The notes beneath the pieces were generated by a model. That model was not told the origin of the DNA, ran no database searches, and was given only the letters and a program-made list of their open reading frames with translations. The position numbers and the translations under genes were made by a program. A stretch of DNA of 64,000 nucleotides from Lachnospiraceae bacterium (GTDB taxonomy: Bacteria; Bacillota; Clostridia; Lachnospirales; Lachnospiraceae). This document shows positions 3,004-12,020 of this stretch, in pieces. How positions within the stretch are numbered: the first letter of the stretch is position 1; every line of letters begins with the position of its first letter. The stretch is taken from NCBI GenBank assembly GCA_024698145.1, contig JAILRO010000014.1:8356-72355 (forward strand), written 5' to 3'.

Positions 3004-5244
3004 ATGAGAAGATATAAGAAAGGACTCGCCCTTGTTATGACAACAGCAATGCTGTTAAGCCTTGCAGCATGCGGAGGCAAGAAAGAAGAACCTGCAGCGA
3101 CTACGACAGAAGAAGTGACAGAGGAAACTTCGGAAGAAAAAACAGAGGACGTAGCAGATGCATCCGACGAGATACAGCCCGGTGTCAACTTGATTAAAGG
3201 CGGCGATTTTTCAGACGGAGTAGGAACATTTGGCACATACACTACTAACGGGGGAAGTGTTAAACTCGATGTAAATGATGATGGAGAGTTACAAATCGAC
3301 ATCGCTAATATAGGAACTGTTGAGCATGGCGTTCAGGTATTTTATGACGGTTTTGCAATGCAGGAGGGAGGTGTCTATCAGCTTGATTTTGATGCACATT
3401 CCACAATAGACAGAGACATTGCATGGAGAATCCAGTTAAATGGTGGTGACTATCATGCATATGCAACAGAGACTGTTTCATTAACAGGCGAACCCCAGCA
3501 CTATTCAATGGAGTTTACCATGGAGGAGGGCAGTGACCCCGCTCCGAGATTTTGTTTTAATTTGGGATATGTTGAGAGCATGCAAGAGGCAGGTGTTGAC
3601 GCCGCAAGTGTGGAGGCACATTCGATAATGATAGATAATCTTTCATTGGTACTTAATGATGGTAGCAACATGCAAGAGGTTGAGGCTCTTGCAGAAGCAC
3701 CGAAGATTAAGGTCAATCAGGTTGGTTACAGAAAAAATGATACAAAGAAAGCAGTATTTACCAATCTTGCAGATGATGACACAACTTTTACTGTTGTAGA
3801 TGCTGCAAGCGGAGAGACAGCATTTGAAGGAACACTTTCAGAGCCATCAGAATACAAAGCAGGACAAGAGATGGATTCTACAGGTGACTTTAGTGAGCTT
3901 AACAAAGAAGGAACTTATAAGATTGTAACCGGTAAAGGTGAAGAGTCCGGAGAGTTTAAGATTGGCGACAATGTTTACGAAGATACATACAAAAGTATTG
4001 TGAAAATGATGTATTTACAGCGCTGCGGAATGGAACTTACAAGTGATGAGGCGGGAGATTTTGCTCATCCTGCTTGCCACACCGGAGAGGCTACTATATA
4101 CGGAACGGATAAGAAGATTGATGTAAGCGGTGGATGGCATGATGCCGGCGATTACGGAAGATATGTTGTTGCAGGCGCGAAAGCTGCTGCGGATCTTGTT
4201 CTTGCTTATGAGAAGTTCGGTGAGAAAGATCTTGTTGACGAAGCAAAATACGAGCTTGACTGGATGCTCAAAATGCAGGATCAGACAAGCGGAGGTGTAT
4301 ATCACAAGGTTACATGCGCAAGCTTCCCGGGAGAAGTTATGCCACAGGAAGAGACCGAGGAATTAATCGTAACACCTATATCAAATGCGGCAACAGGTGA
4401 TTTTGCTGCGGTAATGGCACTTGCCGGTCGTGTATGTGATGACAACAAGTATTTGGATGCTGCGAAGAAGGCGTGGGACTATCTTGAACAGCACAAGGGC
4501 GACAGAGGATTTAAAAATCCCGATGAAATATCGACCGGTGAATATCCTGACAAGTATGACAGAGATGAGTATTTCTGGGCGGCAAGTGAGTTATACAAGA
4601 CAACGGGTGATGACAAATACAAAACTGCAATGGCAGAGTATATTGATGACGAGAGAAATCTTGAAGGTATGGGATGGTCAAGCGTAGGAATGTATGGTTG
4701 TTATGCTGCACTTACCAATGATAAACTTCTTACAGATTCAAGTAATTTAAGAAAGACAATACAGGATTATTTTATAGGCAAGGCTAATGAGTCGGTAGAG
4801 ACAAGCGAGAAGAATCCGTATGGTGTTGATTTTACCAATTCTTTCTATTGGGGTTCTAACATGGGAGTCAGCAACAGTGGAATGGTATTGTTGATGGCCA
4901 ATGAGATTGCACCTGATGAGAAGTATGTAAAATGTGCGAAAGGCCAGCTTGATTATTTGCTTGGACTTAATGCGACAGGTTACTGCTTTGTAACAGGACA
5001 GGGTTACTTAAGTCCACAAAATCCTCATCACAGACCTTCGCAGGCAACAGGTAAATGCATGCCGGGTATGCTTGTGGGTGGACCTAACAGCAATCTTGAG
5101 GATCCATATGCCAAAGCGGTGCTTGCAGATGTTGCACCGGCAAAATGTTATATAGACAACGTGCAAAGCTATTCTTGTAATGAGATTACAATATATTGGA
5201 ACTCACCACTTATTTATCTTATGGCAGCGTTACAGGATGAGTAA
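3004..5244 (+). CDS. GH9 endoglucanase lipoprotein (CBM4/9-like module + Ig-like CelD_N + GH9 catalytic domain)
   Basis: Lipobox 'LSLAACGG'. GH9 signatures 'GGWHDAGDYGRY', 'HHRPS' and 'YSCNEITIYWNSPLIY'. The Ig-like module starts at 'IKVNQVGYR'. Confidence 0.9.
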   Translation: MRRYKKGLALVMTTAMLLSLAACGGKKEEPAATTTEEVTEETSEEKTEDVADASDEIQPGVNLIKGGDFSDGVGTFGTYTTNGGSVKLDVNDDGELQIDIANIGTVEHGVQVFYDGFAMQEGGVYQLDFDAHSTIDRDIAWRIQLNGGDYHAYATETVSLTGEPQHYSMEFTMEEGSDPAPRFCFNLGYVESMQEAGVDAASVEAHSIMIDNLSLVLNDGSNMQEVEALAEAPKIKVNQVGYRKNDTKKAVFTNLADDDTTFTVVDAASGETAFEGTLSEPSEYKAGQEMDSTGDFSELNKEGTYKIVTGKGEESGEFKIGDNVYEDTYKSIVKMMYLQRCGMELTSDEAGDFAHPACHTGEATIYGTDKKIDVSGGWHDAGDYGRYVVAGAKAAADLVLAYEKFGEKDLVDEAKYELDWMLKMQDQTSGGVYHKVTCASFPGEVMPQEETEELIVTPISNAATGDFAAVMALAGRVCDDNKYLDAAKKAWDYLEQHKGDRGFKNPDEISTGEYPDKYDRDEYFWAASELYKTTGDDKYKTAMAEYIDDERNLEGMGWSSVGMYGCYAALTNDKLLTDSSNLRKTIQDYFIGKANESVETSEKNPYGVDFTNSFYWGSNMGVSNSGMVLLMANEIAPDEKYVKCAKGQLDYLLGLNATGYCFVTGQGYLSPQNPHHRPSQATGKCMPGMLVGGPNSNLEDPYAKAVLADVAPAKCYIDNVQSYSCNEITIYWNSPLIYLMAALQDE

Positions 5245-5280: not shown

Positions 5281-6744
5281 TTGGAATATCAACAGTTTGA
5301 CCGCGAAGAATTAAACATAAGCACGCTTTCGGAAAAGTTCGGAGATAATGCCGTATCCAATGTTGCTTTGCAACTTGATGCGGAATCATTTTCTCACGTA
5401 TATCGTTATGTTTTGCACCATGCTATTCTCAACAAAAAGAGTGCCTGCAAGATTCTTTTCACAATAGGAAAGCAGGACGGCAGAGATTCGGAAAGCTATC
5501 GTGACGCATGTGATAAGTTCGGAGATTTTGTAATGGCATTTTTCAGGAAATCCGACATCATGACAAGAAGCAGTGCCAATCAGTATTTTCTGCTTGCTGC
5601 AGACATCAAAGAAGCTTCTGTTACGAAACTTCTTGGGACAGTTTTGGAAAAGTGGTACGAGCTTTACAGAGATGATACTGCTCTTTCCTATGAGATTGAA
5701 TACATTGCAGGCGAAGATAATGCAGTCGACTCTGTAAAGGAGAAGAAAATTGTTGTTGTTGATGATGACGCATCGATTCTTCAACTTGCAGGTCACACAT
5801 TAAGTAAAGCGGGCTATTATGTTGCTGCGCTTCGCTCAGGTCAGGCTCTTCTTCGTCATTTGGAAGAAAACCTTCCAGACTTGATTCTGCTAGACGTTAA
5901 GATGGAAGGCATGGACGGATTCGAGACGCTTGAAAAGCTTAGAAGCATGGAGCATGCGGTCGCTGATATTCCGGTTGTATTTCTTACCGCGGATGAAAGT
6001 ATCGAAGCGGAGAAGAGAGGATTGACACTTGGCGCGATAGATTTTATCAAGAAACCTTTTGTGCCGGAAGTACTTATACTTCGTATACGACACATATTAG
6101 AGCTTGAAACTCTCAAGAAATACTTAAGCAGTATGGTTGATATCAAGACGAAGGAAAACCAGAAGCTTATGATGCATGTCGTGAAGTCCCTTGCGGAGGC
6201 AATTGATGCGAAGGACACGTACACGAATGGTCATTCAGGACGTGTTGCGCAATATGCGAAAATGATTGCGCAAAGAGCGGGTTACTCTCCGGAGAAACAA
6301 AACGACATATATATGATGGGCTTGTTGCATGATGTAGGTAAGATTGGAATACCTGATGCGGTAATCAACAAACCCGCGCGACTTACAGAGGATGAGTTTG
6401 AAATTATCAAGAATCATCCTGTTATGGGAGCCAGAATACTTAAGAATATAAAAGAGATGCCGGAGCTTGCAACGGGAGCAAGATGGCATCATGAACGTTA
6501 CGACGGCAAAGGATATCCGGATGGTCTTAAGGGTGAAGAGATTCCAGAGGAGGCCAGAATTATTGCAGTTGCAGATGCGTATGACGCTATGTCGAGCAGA
6601 CGTAGTTATCGAGGGATTCTTCCACAGGAGGTTGTACGCGAGGAAATCGGCAACGGACACGGAACACAATTTGATCCTACATTTGCTGACATTATGCTGG
6701 AAATGATAGATGAAGATGCGGATTATTCAATGAAGGAGTCGTAA
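5281..6744 (+). CDS. response regulator with degenerate GGDEF-like N-domain, REC and HD-GYP c-di-GMP phosphodiesterase domain
   Basis: TTG start after a GAGGAGGGG RBS. REC region 'IVVVDDD...LILLDVKMEGMDG'. HD-GYP motifs 'HSGRV','LHDVGKIGIPD','HHERYDGKGYPDGL'. The N-domain carries 'RSSANQYFLL' where 'RxGGDEF' would sit. Confidence 0.85.
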   Translation: MEYQQFDREELNISTLSEKFGDNAVSNVALQLDAESFSHVYRYVLHHAILNKKSACKILFTIGKQDGRDSESYRDACDKFGDFVMAFFRKSDIMTRSSANQYFLLAADIKEASVTKLLGTVLEKWYELYRDDTALSYEIEYIAGEDNAVDSVKEKKIVVVDDDASILQLAGHTLSKAGYYVAALRSGQALLRHLEENLPDLILLDVKMEGMDGFETLEKLRSMEHAVADIPVVFLTADESIEAEKRGLTLGAIDFIKKPFVPEVLILRIRHILELETLKKYLSSMVDIKTKENQKLMMHVVKSLAEAIDAKDTYTNGHSGRVAQYAKMIAQRAGYSPEKQNDIYMMGLLHDVGKIGIPDAVINKPARLTEDEFEIIKNHPVMGARILKNIKEMPELATGARWHHERYDGKGYPDGLKGEEIPEEARIIAVADAYDAMSSRRSYRGILPQEVVREEIGNGHGTQFDPTFADIMLEMIDEDADYSMKES

Positions 6745-6745
6745 T

Positions 6746-9340
6746 ATGAAGAAGGTAGAAGAAAGAAACGAGCTTTTCCAAACATCACAGATGACGATAC
6801 TGTTAAGCTATACTATTTTTTCAGGCATCCTTACGGTAGAGTCCATTTTGCTTGGATGGGAAATGTGGGCGGTATTACTTATTTTAATGGGGGTTGGAGT
6901 GTCGTGGTTTATACACATCCAGCAGAGATTTAATGAAAAATACAGGGTATGGATATACTCGATATTTATAATGTTTACATTTTTCTTTTATGGCAGTCAC
7001 CCGACGAGTGTTTTCGATACTGTGGCGGTCATGTCTATTGTGCTGATTCTTTTCACAATGACAGGAATCAGGTCACTTATAACATTTTTGCAGATTCTTT
7101 ATTACATAACTTTTGCGTACGGTATTGTTTCTATGTGGCGAGCCGGCGAGAAGTTTGATTCCCTTGTTATCACACGTGCAATACTTCATATTGCAGCTAT
7201 CACAACCATAAGTTGGATATCTAGAACAATCATTACAAAATGGGTGCAGGTGCTTGACCATTCCCGTGACGAGATTGATCAATTAACCTATGCGACACAA
7301 AGACTTAATGATTTCCTTGCCAATGTTTCTCATGAAATCAGAACACCAATAAATGCGATTATGGGACTTACCGGAATATGTATTGACAACGAGCAGGATC
7401 AGGAGAAACTTACTAATCTCATATCGGTGCGTAATGCCGGAAGACGTGTTGCTGAGCAGATAAGTGATATTCTCGACTATTCAGAGATTGACAGTAACAA
7501 ACTGGCTAATAATTACGAAGACTATGAATTATCTTCGGTGCTAAATGATCTTGTTACGGAGATTCGTCCGTACAAGCCGGAGCATATAGAGCTTGTTATA
7601 GACGTTGATCCTGCAATACCTTGCATAATGAATACGGATATCAACAAATTAAAAAAGATACTTCATCACCTTATAATGAATGGTTTGAAATATACAAGTG
7701 AAGGTGGTGTCTATGCGAGAATATCTGTAGAAAAGCAGGAGTATGGTGTCAATCTTATGCTTGAGGTAACAGATACCGGTATAGGTATGGACGAGGAAGA
7801 AACAGAGCGTATTATGGATGGATTCTATCAGGCAGATTCCGGACGAACCAGACATGCGGGCGGACTTGGCCTTGGCCTTTCCATTACATCAGGTTTTGTT
7901 GCTTCACTTGGTGGCTTCATGATGGTTATGAGTAAACCGGGAGCGGGAACGACAGTCAGGGTTTCAATACCACAGAAAGTTGTTGACCCAAGAAGCTGTA
8001 TGTCGCTTAATAATCGCGAAGAAAAATGTATCGGCGCATTTCTTAATTTTGAAAAATATAAAAACCCGAATGTGCGTGAGTATTACAATGCGATGGTTGG
8101 CCATATCGTTGTCGGACTCGGGGTACAGATGCATAGAGTTGATAATGCAGCCAACTTAAAAAAGCTCACTTCATCTGTTAAATTGACACATCTTTTTGTT
8201 GGTGATGAGGAATACCTTTCGGCCTCTGCAGAGCTTGAGAGACTTGCAAAAGAAATGGTAGTAGTTGTTGTAGCGGATGGCAACTTTAAGCTGCCACGAG
8301 GCTCAAGGGTTAAGATAATGGAGAAGCCGTTCTACTGCTTCCCGGTTGTATCTGTACTGAATACGGACTATACAGATTCGGATACCAATGAAGATGTTAT
8401 GTACTGTAATGGAATAAGAGCATTGGTAGTTGATGACGAGCCGATGAACTTAAGTGTTGCAAAAAGTATATTCAAGCGTTACGGCATGGTTGTCTCAACT
8501 GCGGCTTCCGGACAGGATTCAATTGATATGTGCCATGAAAATGAATACGATATTGTCTTTATGGATCATATGATGCCGGGTATGGATGGTGTTGAAGCAA
8601 TGAAACACATCCGTTCGATACGTTCCAAAGAGAATAAAGATTTGCCGATAGTTGCGCTTACTGCCAATGCTGTAAGTTCTGCAAAGGAAATGTTCTTGTC
8701 GGTAGGATTTGATGGATTTGTAAGCAAGCCGGTTGAAAGGCAGGAGCTTGAGCGCGTGCTTAAAAAGGTTCTTCCAAAGTCGGCAATCACATACGAGAAA
8801 GCAGAAGTTGTACAGGAATCATTTACTTCTTCGGAAGAGAACGCAGAGCCTGAACATGAACTTTCAGCATATGAGAAGCTTAATAATTTCGGAATCGATA
8901 CATTGCTTGGTCTTGAGTACTGCCAGAATGATGATGAACTCTATGAGACATTGCTTCGCCAGTTTGTTGAGGAATATCCTGGAAAGCAGAATAAGATTGA
9001 GGAATACTATAACGCAAAAGATTTCAAGAACTATGAGATATACGTTCATGCATTAAAGACCACAGCAAAAATGCTTGGTAATATGCAACTTTCGGAGCAG
9101 GCGAAAGATCTTGAATTTGCTGCAAAGAAAGAGCAGGCTACTTATATAGAAGGTCATCACAATGCTTTGATGTCATCTTACAAATCGACAATGCAGCATA
9201 TCGCTGATATATACGATATACAACCGGTTGACAAACCGGCAGAGAGTTCTTCGGCAGATAGTGAAGATGAAGTGCTTATATTTGCCCCGGAGAAAAATGA
9301 GAATGATGACGTGTTGATTTTTGAACCGGTAAAGGAGTAG
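6746..9340 (+). CDS. hybrid sensor histidine kinase (multi-TM sensor, HisKA, HATPase_c, REC, HPt)
   Basis: H-box 'ANVSHEIRTPIN', G-boxes 'DTGIGM' and 'GGLGLGLS', REC 'ALVVDDEPMN...FMDHMMPGMDG', C-terminal HPt 'YVHALKTTAKMLG'. The start is 1 nt after the upstream stop. Confidence 0.9.
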   Translation: MKKVEERNELFQTSQMTILLSYTIFSGILTVESILLGWEMWAVLLILMGVGVSWFIHIQQRFNEKYRVWIYSIFIMFTFFFYGSHPTSVFDTVAVMSIVLILFTMTGIRSLITFLQILYYITFAYGIVSMWRAGEKFDSLVITRAILHIAAITTISWISRTIITKWVQVLDHSRDEIDQLTYATQRLNDFLANVSHEIRTPINAIMGLTGICIDNEQDQEKLTNLISVRNAGRRVAEQISDILDYSEIDSNKLANNYEDYELSSVLNDLVTEIRPYKPEHIELVIDVDPAIPCIMNTDINKLKKILHHLIMNGLKYTSEGGVYARISVEKQEYGVNLMLEVTDTGIGMDEEETERIMDGFYQADSGRTRHAGGLGLGLSITSGFVASLGGFMMVMSKPGAGTTVRVSIPQKVVDPRSCMSLNNREEKCIGAFLNFEKYKNPNVREYYNAMVGHIVVGLGVQMHRVDNAANLKKLTSSVKLTHLFVGDEEYLSASAELERLAKEMVVVVVADGNFKLPRGSRVKIMEKPFYCFPVVSVLNTDYTDSDTNEDVMYCNGIRALVVDDEPMNLSVAKSIFKRYGMVVSTAASGQDSIDMCHENEYDIVFMDHMMPGMDGVEAMKHIRSIRSKENKDLPIVALTANAVSSAKEMFLSVGFDGFVSKPVERQELERVLKKVLPKSAITYEKAEVVQESFTSSEENAEPEHELSAYEKLNNFGIDTLLGLEYCQNDDELYETLLRQFVEEYPGKQNKIEEYYNAKDFKNYEIYVHALKTTAKMLGNMQLSEQAKDLEFAAKKEQATYIEGHHNALMSSYKSTMQHIADIYDIQPVDKPAESSSADSEDEVLIFAPEKNENDDVLIFEPVKE

Positions 9341-9344
9341 TGCT

Positions 9345-12020
9345 ATGTTATATAAAAAGATAAAGAGTATCATTTATGATGAAAAGCGCGATTTGCAGGA
9401 GGCAATGTATGTAGTACTCTCTGTTGTATCGGTTGCTGCATGGACTTTGATGTTAATTGAAGATTTGATTCTTGGACAGCGTATAGAGGAAACCGTGTTT
9501 TTGTTTGGCGTTTTGTTTATGTACACAGCTGTGGCTTTGGTTGCAATAAAGCACAACAAAGAAAAAATCGGTTCCGTTTTAGCTGCATTTGGTATGACGT
9601 TATTCTTTCTTCCCTGTTCCTATATTTTTGATGGAGGAATCAGTGGAGACGCACCAATCTGGTTTGTGTATTGTGTGTTCTATGTTACGGTGTGCTTAAG
9701 CGGAAAGAGACGAGTGCTTTTTTATGTGCTTAATGCTTTTTCGGTAATAATATGTTGGTGTATTTCTTATTATGCACCTCATATGATTGAGCAAAAGGAT
9801 ACCCTTGCCGTTCATTTGTATTCATTTAATGCGCTTGTGCTGGTGTGTATATGTATAAGTATTTCGCTTATATTCCAGTCGCGTATGTATCGTCGCGAGG
9901 TGAAGCGTTCGGATGAGCAACGCGTGGAAATCGAGCAGTTAAATCAGGCGCAGAATCAGTTTTTCTCTAATATGAGTCATGAGATTCGTACACCGATTAA
10001 CACGATTGTCGGACTTAATGAAATGATTCTTCGAGAGAATATTTCCGATGAGGTGGCTGAGGATGCTATTAATATTCAATCGGCAAGTAAAATGCTGCTT
10101 CATTTGATAAATGATATTCTTGATATGTCGAAACTTGCATCCGGACAGATGCAGTTGACGCCCGTTGTATATAATGCGGGTGATATGCTTTCGGATATTG
10201 TCGGAATGTTGTGGCTTCGCGCCAAAGAAAAGAAATTAGAGTTTCACATCAACGTTGCACCAGATGTTCCTGCTGAACTTGTAGGTGATGAGGTAAGGAT
10301 TAAGCAGGTGCTTATAAATGTTCTTAATAATGCAATCAAATATACAAGTGAAGGTTCCGTATCTTTGTCCGTTCAGCGTGGTGAATTAAAAGACGGCATG
10401 CTTAATGTAATATATTCCGTAAGTGATACGGGAATGGGAATAAAGAAAGAGAGTATTCCATATCTCTTCACTGCGTTCCGTCGCGTGGATGAGGAGAAAA
10501 ACCGTCATATCGAGGGAACAGGACTTGGACTTTCCATAGTTAAGCAGTTTGTTGACTTGATGGGTGGTAAGATAACCGTTAACAGTATATATACGGAAGG
10601 AACAACATTTATAATCGAAATCCCGCAAAGAATTTCCGGCGATCAGAAGATTGGCGATGTTGATATTGAAGCAAGAAAAGAGATGCACATGCGTCATGAA
10701 CATGTGACGAGATTCGAGGCCCCGGAGGCGAAGGTTTTGGTTGTTGACGATAATGCTTCTAACCTTTTGGTAGTATCAAAACTTTTGCGTAACACAAAGG
10801 TTCAGCTTACAACTGCTTCAAGTGGTGCAGAGGCTTTGCAGAAGACTTTAAATGATCATTATCACGTAATATTCATGGATCACCTTATGCCGGAGATGGA
10901 TGGTATTGAATGTATGAAGGCGATTCGTACGCAGGTCGGCGGACGTTGTAAAGAGTCTAGGATTGTTGCACTTACTGCCAATGCAGGTGGAGACAGTCGC
11001 GCACTTTATGAGAAAGAGGGCTTTGAAGGATATCTTGTAAAACCTATTTCCGGCGATTTATTAGAACGAGAACTATATCGTTTGTTGCCATCGGAGATTA
11101 CCAACCTTATAGGTGATGATGAGGATATATTGCAAGAGACTATCTCTTGGATGAACAAAGGTCAGAGGAAGGTTGCGGTTGCGATTACGACAGAGAGTGT
11201 TGCGGATATAGCGCAGGAGCTTGTCGAGAAGAATGAAATATCATTGTTGCCACACCTTGTTCATACCGAAGAGGGATCATTTAAGGATGGAATTGAAATA
11301 GAGACACAGGGACTTCTTAATTACATGGACGACCCTGACAAAGTAGTTACATACAGTGGTCCTACGGTCAAGGACGAGGAATCATTCTTTGCGGAAAAGC
11401 TGCACGGAGCTAATGATATTATTCATATATCTATTTCCAGTGGACTTGCTAACAGTGGTTATTACACGTCACTCGAGGCTTCGAAAGCATTTGATAATGT
11501 AAAGGTATTTGATACCGGACATCTTTCCAGTGGACAGGGACTTTGCGCGTTAGAGGCGTGCAGGCTTGTTAGGGAAGGTAAAAGACCTGATGAGATTATG
11601 GAAGAGTTGGAACATGTGAGAAATCGTGTCAGCACAAGTTTTGTCGTTGACAATCTTGATTTCCTTGCAAGAGCCGGTCAGGTTAGTCCTCGAATTGCAA
11701 GAATTACAAAGTCAATTATGGCAAGACCTGTTCTTGTTATGAAGAAGGGTGATTTGGGCGTCGGCAGGATATATTTTGGTGCGAGAGAGCGAGCATGGAG
11801 AAAGTATATCGCATCTGTTCTTCGTTATCCAAATGAGATAGATACGAAAATCCTCTTTGTAACATATGTTGGTCTTACCAAGAAAGATATGGATTGGATA
11901 CGTGCACAGATTGAGGATCATATGAAGTTTGAGAAGATATATTTCCAGAAAGCATCGCCGGTTATTGCCGTTAACTGTGGACGCGGAACGTTTGGACTTT
12001 TGTACCTGAGGAAAAAATAA
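9345..12020 (+). CDS. hybrid sensor histidine kinase fused to a C-terminal DegV (fatty-acid-binding) domain
   Basis: Multi-TM N-terminus, H-box 'SNMSHEIRTPIN' (His codon about 9978), 'DTGMGI' and 'GTGLGLSIV', REC 'VLVVDDNASN...FMDHLMPEMDG'. The region from about 11169 matches DegV by eye: 'VAVAITTES','IHISISSGLANSG','VFDTGHLSSGQG','FVVDNLDFLARAGQVS'. Confidence 0.88.
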   Translation: MLYKKIKSIIYDEKRDLQEAMYVVLSVVSVAAWTLMLIEDLILGQRIEETVFLFGVLFMYTAVALVAIKHNKEKIGSVLAAFGMTLFFLPCSYIFDGGISGDAPIWFVYCVFYVTVCLSGKRRVLFYVLNAFSVIICWCISYYAPHMIEQKDTLAVHLYSFNALVLVCICISISLIFQSRMYRREVKRSDEQRVEIEQLNQAQNQFFSNMSHEIRTPINTIVGLNEMILRENISDEVAEDAINIQSASKMLLHLINDILDMSKLASGQMQLTPVVYNAGDMLSDIVGMLWLRAKEKKLEFHINVAPDVPAELVGDEVRIKQVLINVLNNAIKYTSEGSVSLSVQRGELKDGMLNVIYSVSDTGMGIKKESIPYLFTAFRRVDEEKNRHIEGTGLGLSIVKQFVDLMGGKITVNSIYTEGTTFIIEIPQRISGDQKIGDVDIEARKEMHMRHEHVTRFEAPEAKVLVVDDNASNLLVVSKLLRNTKVQLTTASSGAEALQKTLNDHYHVIFMDHLMPEMDGIECMKAIRTQVGGRCKESRIVALTANAGGDSRALYEKEGFEGYLVKPISGDLLERELYRLLPSEITNLIGDDEDILQETISWMNKGQRKVAVAITTESVADIAQELVEKNEISLLPHLVHTEEGSFKDGIEIETQGLLNYMDDPDKVVTYSGPTVKDEESFFAEKLHGANDIIHISISSGLANSGYYTSLEASKAFDNVKVFDTGHLSSGQGLCALEACRLVREGKRPDEIMEELEHVRNRVSTSFVVDNLDFLARAGQVSPRIARITKSIMARPVLVMKKGDLGVGRIYFGARERAWRKYIASVLRYPNEIDTKILFVTYVGLTKKDMDWIRAQIEDHMKFEKIYFQKASPVIAVNCGRGTFGLLYLRKK

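Follow-up and report, generated by a model that had tools for sequence, protein, structure and literature searches.

To our knowledge, the only role known for DegV/FakB proteins is to carry fatty acids for the fatty acid kinase of Gram-positive bacteria. Phosphorelays in which several kinases converge on one histidine phosphotransfer (HPt) domain are represented by LuxN, LuxQ and CqsS of Vibrio, which act on LuxU. In the H-NOX-HnoK-HnoB/D and NosP-NahK systems, a soluble ligand-binding protein and a hybrid kinase act through an HPt domain on REC-EAL or REC-HD-GYP proteins. The DNA analysed here, a stretch of 64,000 nucleotides from a Lachnospiraceae bacterium (contig JAILRO010000014.1, positions 8,356 to 72,355; referred to as the window), contains at positions 9345-12020 a gene for a hybrid histidine kinase (HK) which ends in a DegV domain. 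The gene lies in a cassette with a second hybrid kinase, which carries an HPt domain, and with a response regulator that has an HD-GYP domain of the type which degrades cyclic di-GMP (c-di-GMP). A hybrid-kinase phosphorelay is a known type of system; DegV as its accessory domain is unprecedented. No paper describing such proteins was found in the literature searched on DegV with histidine kinases, receivers, phosphorelays or c-di-GMP, in agreement with the sequence-only reading of this DNA, which was aware of no characterised example. We consider it about an even chance (probability 0.5) that the DegV domain is a ligand-binding regulatory module of a two-kinase relay, gating the flow of phosphate to the c-di-GMP phosphodiesterase, and not the fatty-acid carrier of FakA.

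By analogy, the cassette of the window may be compared with the LuxN/LuxQ/CqsS-LuxU relay in having two hybrid kinases, a single HPt domain and one downstream receiver protein. It differs from relays of the LuxU type in that one kinase contains the HPt domain, a c-di-GMP enzyme serves as the output and DegV is an obligatory third element. Similarly, related cassettes with a free DegV protein (see below) would correspond in layout to the H-NOX and NosP relays, although the sensor fold here is DegV instead of a haem protein, its ligand is only proposed and, in the majority of cases, DegV follows the receiver of a second kinase in the same chain. A link between a fatty-acid-binding/kinase system and histidine-kinase signalling is described for Staphylococcus aureus (PMC5539427), where SaeRS is under fatty-acid control through FakAB. 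The link there is indirect, by way of the free fatty-acid pool and separate proteins, whereas here the DegV fold stands within the relay itself.

The DegV-bearing kinase and its fusion junction

The gene at 9345-12020 is a single unbroken reading frame on the + strand. Pfam and NCBIfam profiles and hydropathy gave the domain order of about six transmembrane helices, HisKA, HATPase_c, REC, a flexible linker and a full-length DegV domain, which bears out the architecture proposed from the sequence alone. The features of the protein are as follows (pLDDT, predicted local distance difference test):

9345..12020, + strand: hybrid histidine kinase with C-terminal DegV domain, 891 amino acids (open reading frame with Pfam and NCBIfam profiles)
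9345..9900, + strand: membrane region, about six hydrophobic helices with short loops (hydropathy scan)
9948..10631, + strand: kinase core (Pfam; residue mapping; alignment of 117 relatives)
9948-10145, + strand: HisKA, residues 202-267, E 9e-17, with the phospho-acceptor His212 at 9978-9980 within SHEIRTP (Pfam, mapping)
10284-10631, + strand: HATPase_c, residues 314-429, E 1e-26 (Pfam)
10734..11066, + strand: receiver (Response_reg) with full active-site set, residues 464-574, E 3e-19 (Pfam; alignment of 117 sequences)
11067..11177, + strand: REC-DegV linker (pLDDT of model; alignment)
11178..12011, + strand: DegV (EDD-fold) domain of the relay-associated Asn-type branch (Pfam, NCBIfam, alignments, Foldseek)
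+ strand: DegV site residues Tyr670 (11352-11354), Ala702, Ser704, Arg776, Gln779 (11679-11681) and Asn877 (11973-11975) (mapping)

The H-box and ATP-lid motifs are nearly invariant among the 117 relatives. The five receiver residues Asp468, Asp469, Asp512 (10878-10880), Thr544 and Lys566 (columns 18, 19, 62, 94 and 116 of the alignment) are all invariant. The protein has the H-box His, the ATP-binding domain with its N and G boxes and the complete receiver site of a hybrid histidine kinase. According to the hydropathy scan, its N-terminal 190 residues are the membrane part, without an extracytoplasmic domain, and no similarity between this region and the membrane region of the second kinase was detectable by BLASTP. 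The linker holds a nearly invariant I-x-x-E-x-x-S-W-M stretch, in which I145, E148, S151, W152 and M153 (alignment numbering) are at least 90% conserved. In the AlphaFold2 model, pLDDT is below 50 at model residues 143-157, and the linker is thus predicted to be flexible.

The same protein occurs widely. With the REC-DegV part as the query, more than 100 protein clusters were found at 59-89% identity, with all four Pfam domains and about 890 amino acids in length. Their sources are Lachnospiraceae, Oscillospiraceae, Ruminococcus, other metagenome-assembled genomes and the isolate Butyrivibrio sp. AE2032, and public annotation labels them only as 'DegV family EDD domain-containing protein'. The family of the window was surveyed with one genome per genus (300 genera). 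A match at E<=1e-35 was obtained in 52 genera, about 40 of them in single open frames of 865-1166 amino acids, and the relay DegV thus occurs in about one genus in six of the family; the other species of the genus to which the window belongs gave no match. Sampling across the class showed fused forms in two families, that of the window and one more. The copies from this second family, 58-59% identical, are closer than most copies from the window's family, which suggests horizontal spread.

It had been pointed out that the junction at about 11100-11170 might be an assembly or frameshift artefact joining a kinase gene to a separate degV gene. This explanation, to which we give practically no weight, is refuted by the occurrence of the same open frame in more than 100 independent clusters from dozens of genomes and four times in the genome studied here, together with the conserved linker. 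The reads of two bovine-gut DNA runs were uninformative either way, as they gave short contigs of low depth, none of which bridged the REC-DegV junction. RNA contigs of two metatranscriptomes matched only conserved motifs of 35-50 nucleotides from other organisms.

A separate branch of the DegV fold

The C-terminal region is truly a DegV domain. It was matched by the Pfam profile PF02645 (residues 612-889, profile positions 2-279 of 280, E 2.7e-44, 152 bits against a cut-off of 27), which gave 11178-12011 for the domain that had been placed at about 11169-12017, and by TIGR00762 of NCBIfam (167 bits against a cut-off of 99.7). The AlphaFold2 model of residues 451-891 (mean pLDDT 87.7) is confident for both domains. 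In Foldseek, the whole DegV part aligned over about 287 columns to more than 30 DegV/FakB structures, among them FakB1 and FakB2 (5UTO, 6MH9 and 4X9X of S. aureus; 7W7H of S. suis), with template modelling (TM) scores of 0.85-0.88 and 22-26% identity. Both the profile and the full-length two-lobed EDD fold thus place the domain in the DegV family. The structure prediction that had been recommended for judging the lipid pocket confirmed a complete fold. The pocket itself was assessed by the hydrophobicity of alignment columns, and 69 of the 84 columns that are hydrophobic in canonical DegVs, most core columns included, remain hydrophobic here, an indirect indication that a long-chain fatty acid might be bound.

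FakB1 binds the fatty-acid carboxylate via Thr62, Ser95 and His270 (PMC8892158, PMC10848957). An Arg at the tunnel entrance, Arg173 in FakB1 and Arg170 in FakB2, is essential, and the Arg-to-Ala mutant of FakB is inactive (PMC10848957, PMC8892158). In the HMMER alignment to 6MH9 and 4X9X, the positions of Thr62, Ser95 and His270 are occupied by Tyr670, Ala702 and Asn877, and that of Arg173 by Gln779; neither the carboxylate network nor the essential Arg is thus present in the window protein. The FakB1 equivalog model NF038249 gave 114.7 bits, far below its cut-off of 350. Trp180 of FakB1 inserts into the membrane; relay DegVs have basic or polar residues in its column, and the window protein has Arg. 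The column of the FakA-docking Arg205 of FakB1 (Arg202 of FakB2), in a loop where the alignment is ambiguous, reads Gly even in canonical DegVs; two residues further stands Arg814, which is nearly invariant. While FakB1 and FakB2 are free soluble proteins, the window DegV is fused to a membrane hybrid kinase, and its gene neighbourhood is one of signalling and not of lipid synthesis.

Among the 117 close relatives, Asn877 is present in all, and Gln779, Arg776 and Ser704 in 115 each; the Thr62 column reads Thr in 79 of them. The conservation of these four residues, together with the retained hydrophobic columns, argues that the site is under selection. Over the wider branch, the His270 column reads Asn in 86 of 99 fused forms and in all six free DegVs found within cassettes, as opposed to His in eight of nine DegVs away from kinases. 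The latter read Thr/Ser/Arg/His at the four site columns, whereas the free DegVs within cassettes read Ser or Thr, Ser, Lys or Arg, and Asn. In the 99 fused forms, the Arg173 column is divided among Arg (34), Gln (17), Leu (13), Tyr (11) and Lys (9), and the Ser95 column is mostly Ser (40) or Gly (26). As judged from these alignments, the hallmark of the branch is the change of His to Asn, and the loss of Arg is specific to subclades such as that of the window protein, in which the Ser95, Thr62 and Trp180 columns read Ala, Tyr and Arg. A tree of 194 DegV domains (FastTree) placed the window DegV in a well-supported set of 87 rows, almost all of which are fused kinases. Free DegVs from cassettes were scattered in this tree, and fusion and fission were therefore either repeated or are not resolved by it. 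On the strength of sequence comparisons, the relay DegVs are a distinct sister branch of the fold and accompany such relays in numerous arrangements.

The same genome contains eight DegV loci, four within kinases and four free-standing (283-298 amino acids, with high Pfam scores) of the canonical FakB type. The check for a fakA homologue which had been proposed revealed one canonical FakA (Dak2, FakA_M and FakA_C; 600 amino acids). With this separate Fak system and the replaced site residues, the premise of the sequence-only reading that the domain is FakB-like was not upheld. Of 301 genomes of the family, 294 gave a FakA_C match, whether or not they had a relay DegV; FakA, being nearly universal, is thus distributed independently of the relay DegV. 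In G181, a genome rated 100% complete, the fused kinase is present and no FakA_C match was obtained.

Cassette layouts and the partner kinase

The cassette of the window consists of REC-HD-GYP (5281-6744), transmembrane-HK-pseudoreceiver-REC-HPt (6746-9340) and, as its last gene, transmembrane-HK-REC-DegV (9345-12020). With intergenic gaps of 1 and 4 nucleotides, it is translationally packed; a promoter and terminator scan of the window gave counts at chance level. The features upstream of the DegV kinase are:

5281..6744, + strand: REC-HD-GYP response regulator, REC at residues 157-269 and HD-GYP at about 300-450 (Pfam REC and HD_5/HD; motifs)
6746..9340, + strand: partner hybrid kinase, 864 amino acids, about six transmembrane helices, acidic tail (Pfam)
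7304-7495, + strand: HisKA of the partner, His196 (Pfam)
7637-7975, + strand: HATPase_c of the partner (Pfam)
7967..8419, + strand: pseudo-receiver insert of about 150 amino acids (residues 408-558) between ATPase and receiver of the partner (AlphaFold2, Foldseek, profile)
8423-8758, + strand: REC of the partner, Asp607 (Pfam)
8951-9130, + strand: HPt of the partner, His768 at 9047-9049, E 2e-05 (Pfam)
9266..9337, + strand: two acidic D-[DE]-V-L-I-F-x-P motifs at the extreme C-terminus of the partner (pattern search)

The elements of a relay are present. The cassette contains an HPt domain with a conserved His (His768, Lys771 and Gly778 are invariant in 27 orthologues), and its terminal receiver is fused to an HD-GYP domain in which the phosphodiesterase motifs are intact (HD at 350, HHE at 403, GYP at 411). 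We infer phosphotransfer among the cassette proteins from gene order and these intact residues. The sole HPt domain of the cassette is that of the partner kinase. The description of the DegV domain as occupying the place of an HPt or output domain was a fair one, and in sister forms an HPt domain follows DegV in the same chain (HK-REC-DegV-HPt).

No Pfam family was found at E<=1 in the N-terminal 150 or so amino acids of the HD-GYP regulator (5281-5745). The sequence RSSANQYFLL stands there where a GGDEF motif would be expected and, since sister cassettes carry REC-GGDEF-REC-HD-GYP proteins, this N-terminus may be the remnant of a GGDEF domain. X-REC proteins of other cassettes have similar N-termini, again with no Pfam family at E<=1.

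The insert of the partner kinase also gave no Pfam family at E<=1. Its AlphaFold2 model (pLDDT 85; predicted TM-score, pTM, 0.79) has a predicted CheY-like fold, and the best Foldseek matches, which are weak, are receiver and pseudo-receiver domains (TM-scores 0.55-0.68). No conserved acidic pocket was seen in the alignment of inserts. In the related loci, the insert profile was found in 32 of 35 HK-REC-HPt kinases, 7 of 10 HK-REC kinases and none of 35 DegV kinases, and it accompanies partner kinases of every layout, including those of free-DegV cassettes. This pattern indicates that the recurring core consists of a hybrid kinase bearing the pseudo-receiver, an HPt domain and DegV. The four strongest matches in this genome are its four partner kinases; a fifth, weaker copy is located in an orphan kinase (G000 C18:5241-7748). 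One to three tail motifs similar to those of the window (..EF.P) were found with a strict pattern in 10 of 27 partner kinases, eight of which pair with a DegV of the Gln779 type, an association that may reflect shared descent only. Other partner kinases end in a helical extension with a DF[DE][FY][DE] motif.

The 51 related loci were annotated with domain profiles built from the proteins of this genome. Their contexts were taken from genome-search matches; a generic search with kinase and receiver peptides gave REC-DegV in only 11 of 80 loci. In 24 of the 31 loci of the first batch, HK-REC-HPt lies directly upstream of HK-REC-DegV, and the pair is usually preceded by REC-HD-GYP, REC-GGDEF-REC-HD-GYP or REC-GGDEF-REC. 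A REC-HD-GYP or related c-di-GMP gene holds the same position as in the window in most related loci. Other layouts are HK-REC followed by HK-REC-DegV-HPt or by DegV-HK-REC-HPt (L110), HK-REC-HPt followed by a two-domain REC-DegV protein (L132), and split HK-REC and DegV genes (L023). In six loci (L113-L117, L123), a free DegV is encoded directly downstream of a single HK-REC-HPt gene, with a gene of a c-di-GMP regulator close by in four of them. Representatives with DegV-[membrane]-HK-REC-HPt, REC-DegV-HPt and DegV-HPt forms were confirmed by Pfam, some short ones of which may be fragments, and DegV is located at the kinase N-terminus in nine clusters. In one metagenomic protein (P0283, 1568 amino acids), an N-terminal DegV is followed by dCache_1, HisKA, HATPase_c, REC and HPt; a relay DegV can thus share one kinase with a classical sensor domain of the periplasmic type.

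This genome carries four paralogous DegV-kinase cassettes in three layouts. The three cassettes outside the window (G000 C16:34989-49935, corresponding to L010:4989-19935, and G000 C43, L011:1805-10294; two are back to back on one contig) differ in the placement of HPt and in the c-di-GMP output, which is REC-HD-GYP, 7TM-HD-GYP or X-GGDEF. They read REC-HD-GYP / HK-REC-HPt / HK-REC-DegV; HPt protein / HK-REC / HK-REC-DegV / X-REC / 7TM-HD-GYP; and X-REC / HK-REC / HK-REC-DegV-HPt / X-GGDEF. The N-terminal half of the separate HPt protein (L010:11327-12265) is receiver-like at a sub-threshold level (Response_reg E 0.0016, 19 bits). In the cassettes annotated, all neighbours that could be recognised are two-component or c-di-GMP proteins, and no gene of lipid metabolism was seen.

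Role of the DegV domain in the relay

In the mechanism that we propose, both kinases would autophosphorylate and pass phosphate to their own receivers, which would compete for, or feed, the single HPt domain at His768. The HPt domain would then phosphorylate the receiver of the HD-GYP enzyme and so set the level of c-di-GMP. The kinase would hold DegV near the inner face of the membrane, where the domain may bind a small hydrophobic ligand, a fatty acid or a related lipid, with altered contacts to the head group. By contacting the adjacent receiver, the HPt domain or the pseudo-receiver of the partner, DegV could change the amount of phosphate delivered or drained by its branch of the relay. 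As the branch travels with the two-kinase c-di-GMP relay, its DegV is probably a regulatory module of the lipid-binding type and not a protein of lipid metabolism. A role on the input side, as a sensor or modulator, is preferred to one in the output because some DegVs of the branch have no receiver before them, the neighbours that were recognised all serve in signalling and the residues of the site are under selection. The sequence-only reading had offered two possibilities, namely that phosphorylation of REC controls the presentation of a bound lipid or that lipid occupancy feeds back on the phosphorelay. The latter fits better, since DegVs of the same branch are found with no REC in front, free beside an HPt-bearing kinase or at the kinase N-terminus.

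Several points weigh against the role of a ligand-binding module. The position after a receiver is typical of output domains, and a sensor located there is unusual. The flexible linker and a pTM of only 0.64 for the two-domain REC-DegV model do not support a fixed interface between the two domains. The variation of the head-group columns over the wider branch speaks against a single ligand chemistry conserved throughout, and would likewise suit a domain that binds only proteins. A complex prediction for DegV (residues 600-891) with the HPt region of the partner (690-864), made with alignments, scored 0.00 and is not evidence either way.

It is this variation which keeps alive, as a serious though doubtful rival, the explanation that DegV is a ligand-free docking scaffold, joining the two kinases or positioning the receiver against the HPt domain, pseudo-receiver or acidic tail of the partner. 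The strict co-occurrence of DegV with the pseudoreceiver-bearing kinase in all layouts would agree with a scaffold, and so would the tail motif co-distributed with Gln779-type DegVs, although this association may come from common ancestry only. Against a scaffold stand the hydrophobic core and tunnel columns, which are largely kept, and the Asn where the carboxylate was once bound. This residue is the hallmark of the branch that is conserved best, and it suggests that the site still works. We regard it as improbable that DegV is instead the output domain, so that phosphorylation of Asp512 would alter the holding, release or hand-over of a bound lipid, for example to the membrane or a lipid enzyme, and the kinase would regulate lipid handling directly. 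The location of DegV directly behind the receiver, the usual place of response-regulator outputs, the conserved motif of the linker and the two-domain REC-DegV protein beside an HK-REC-HPt kinase (L132) speak for it. This is opposed by the receiver-less forms, free in six cassettes and N-terminal in nine clusters, by neighbours that are all two-component or c-di-GMP proteins with no lipid-metabolism gene among them, and by Gln at the essential Arg and a basic or polar Trp180 column.

Even less can be said for a genuine FakB-type carrier, tethered to the kinase and presenting a fatty acid to FakA, by which the kinase would report or control fatty-acid uptake. The fold is complete and close to FakB1 and FakB2 and the genome has one FakA, but Arg173, His270, Ser95 and Thr62 are all replaced, the first of them in a position where replacement by Ala inactivates FakB (PMC10848957, PMC8892158), and the score with the FakB1 model is far too low. 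Moreover, FakA is near-universal in the family and the relay DegV is present in about a sixth of its genera, including that of G181 with its fused kinase and no FakA_C match. A further variant, with a very slim chance of being correct, is that an acyl group bound to DegV itself joins the relay, either as an acyl-phosphate serving as phosphodonor to the receiver Asp or as a carboxylate phosphorylated by HPt~P or REC~P. Acetyl phosphate is a phosphodonor to many receivers. This variant is compatible with the repeated occurrence of DegV-HPt and REC-DegV-HPt fusions and with the Ser/Ser/Arg site, which a large part of the branch retains; membership of the Gln779 subclade makes it less likely for the window protein. 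If it were true, the relay would have direct access, as reader or writer, to the acyl-phosphate pool supplying phospholipid synthesis.

His-Asp phosphorelays with a c-di-GMP enzyme at their end thus incorporate an entire sister branch of the DegV fold, which is common among Clostridia of the rumen and gut and occurs four times in one genome. New here are the four paralogous cassettes, the permutations including a free DegV, the pseudoreceiver-bearing partner kinase, defined as an obligatory companion, and the His-to-Asn change as the definition of the branch. Should the ligand-binding module indeed bind a lipid, it would represent a new class of cytoplasmic lipid sensor, and free fatty acids or the state of membrane lipids, which are important to rumen Lachnospiraceae, would be linked to c-di-GMP-controlled behaviour. 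Directly upstream of the cassette, at window positions 3004-5244, lies a gene for a GH9 cellulase with CBM4_9 and CelD_N domains, a neighbour that fits a fibre-degrading organism of the gut or rumen.

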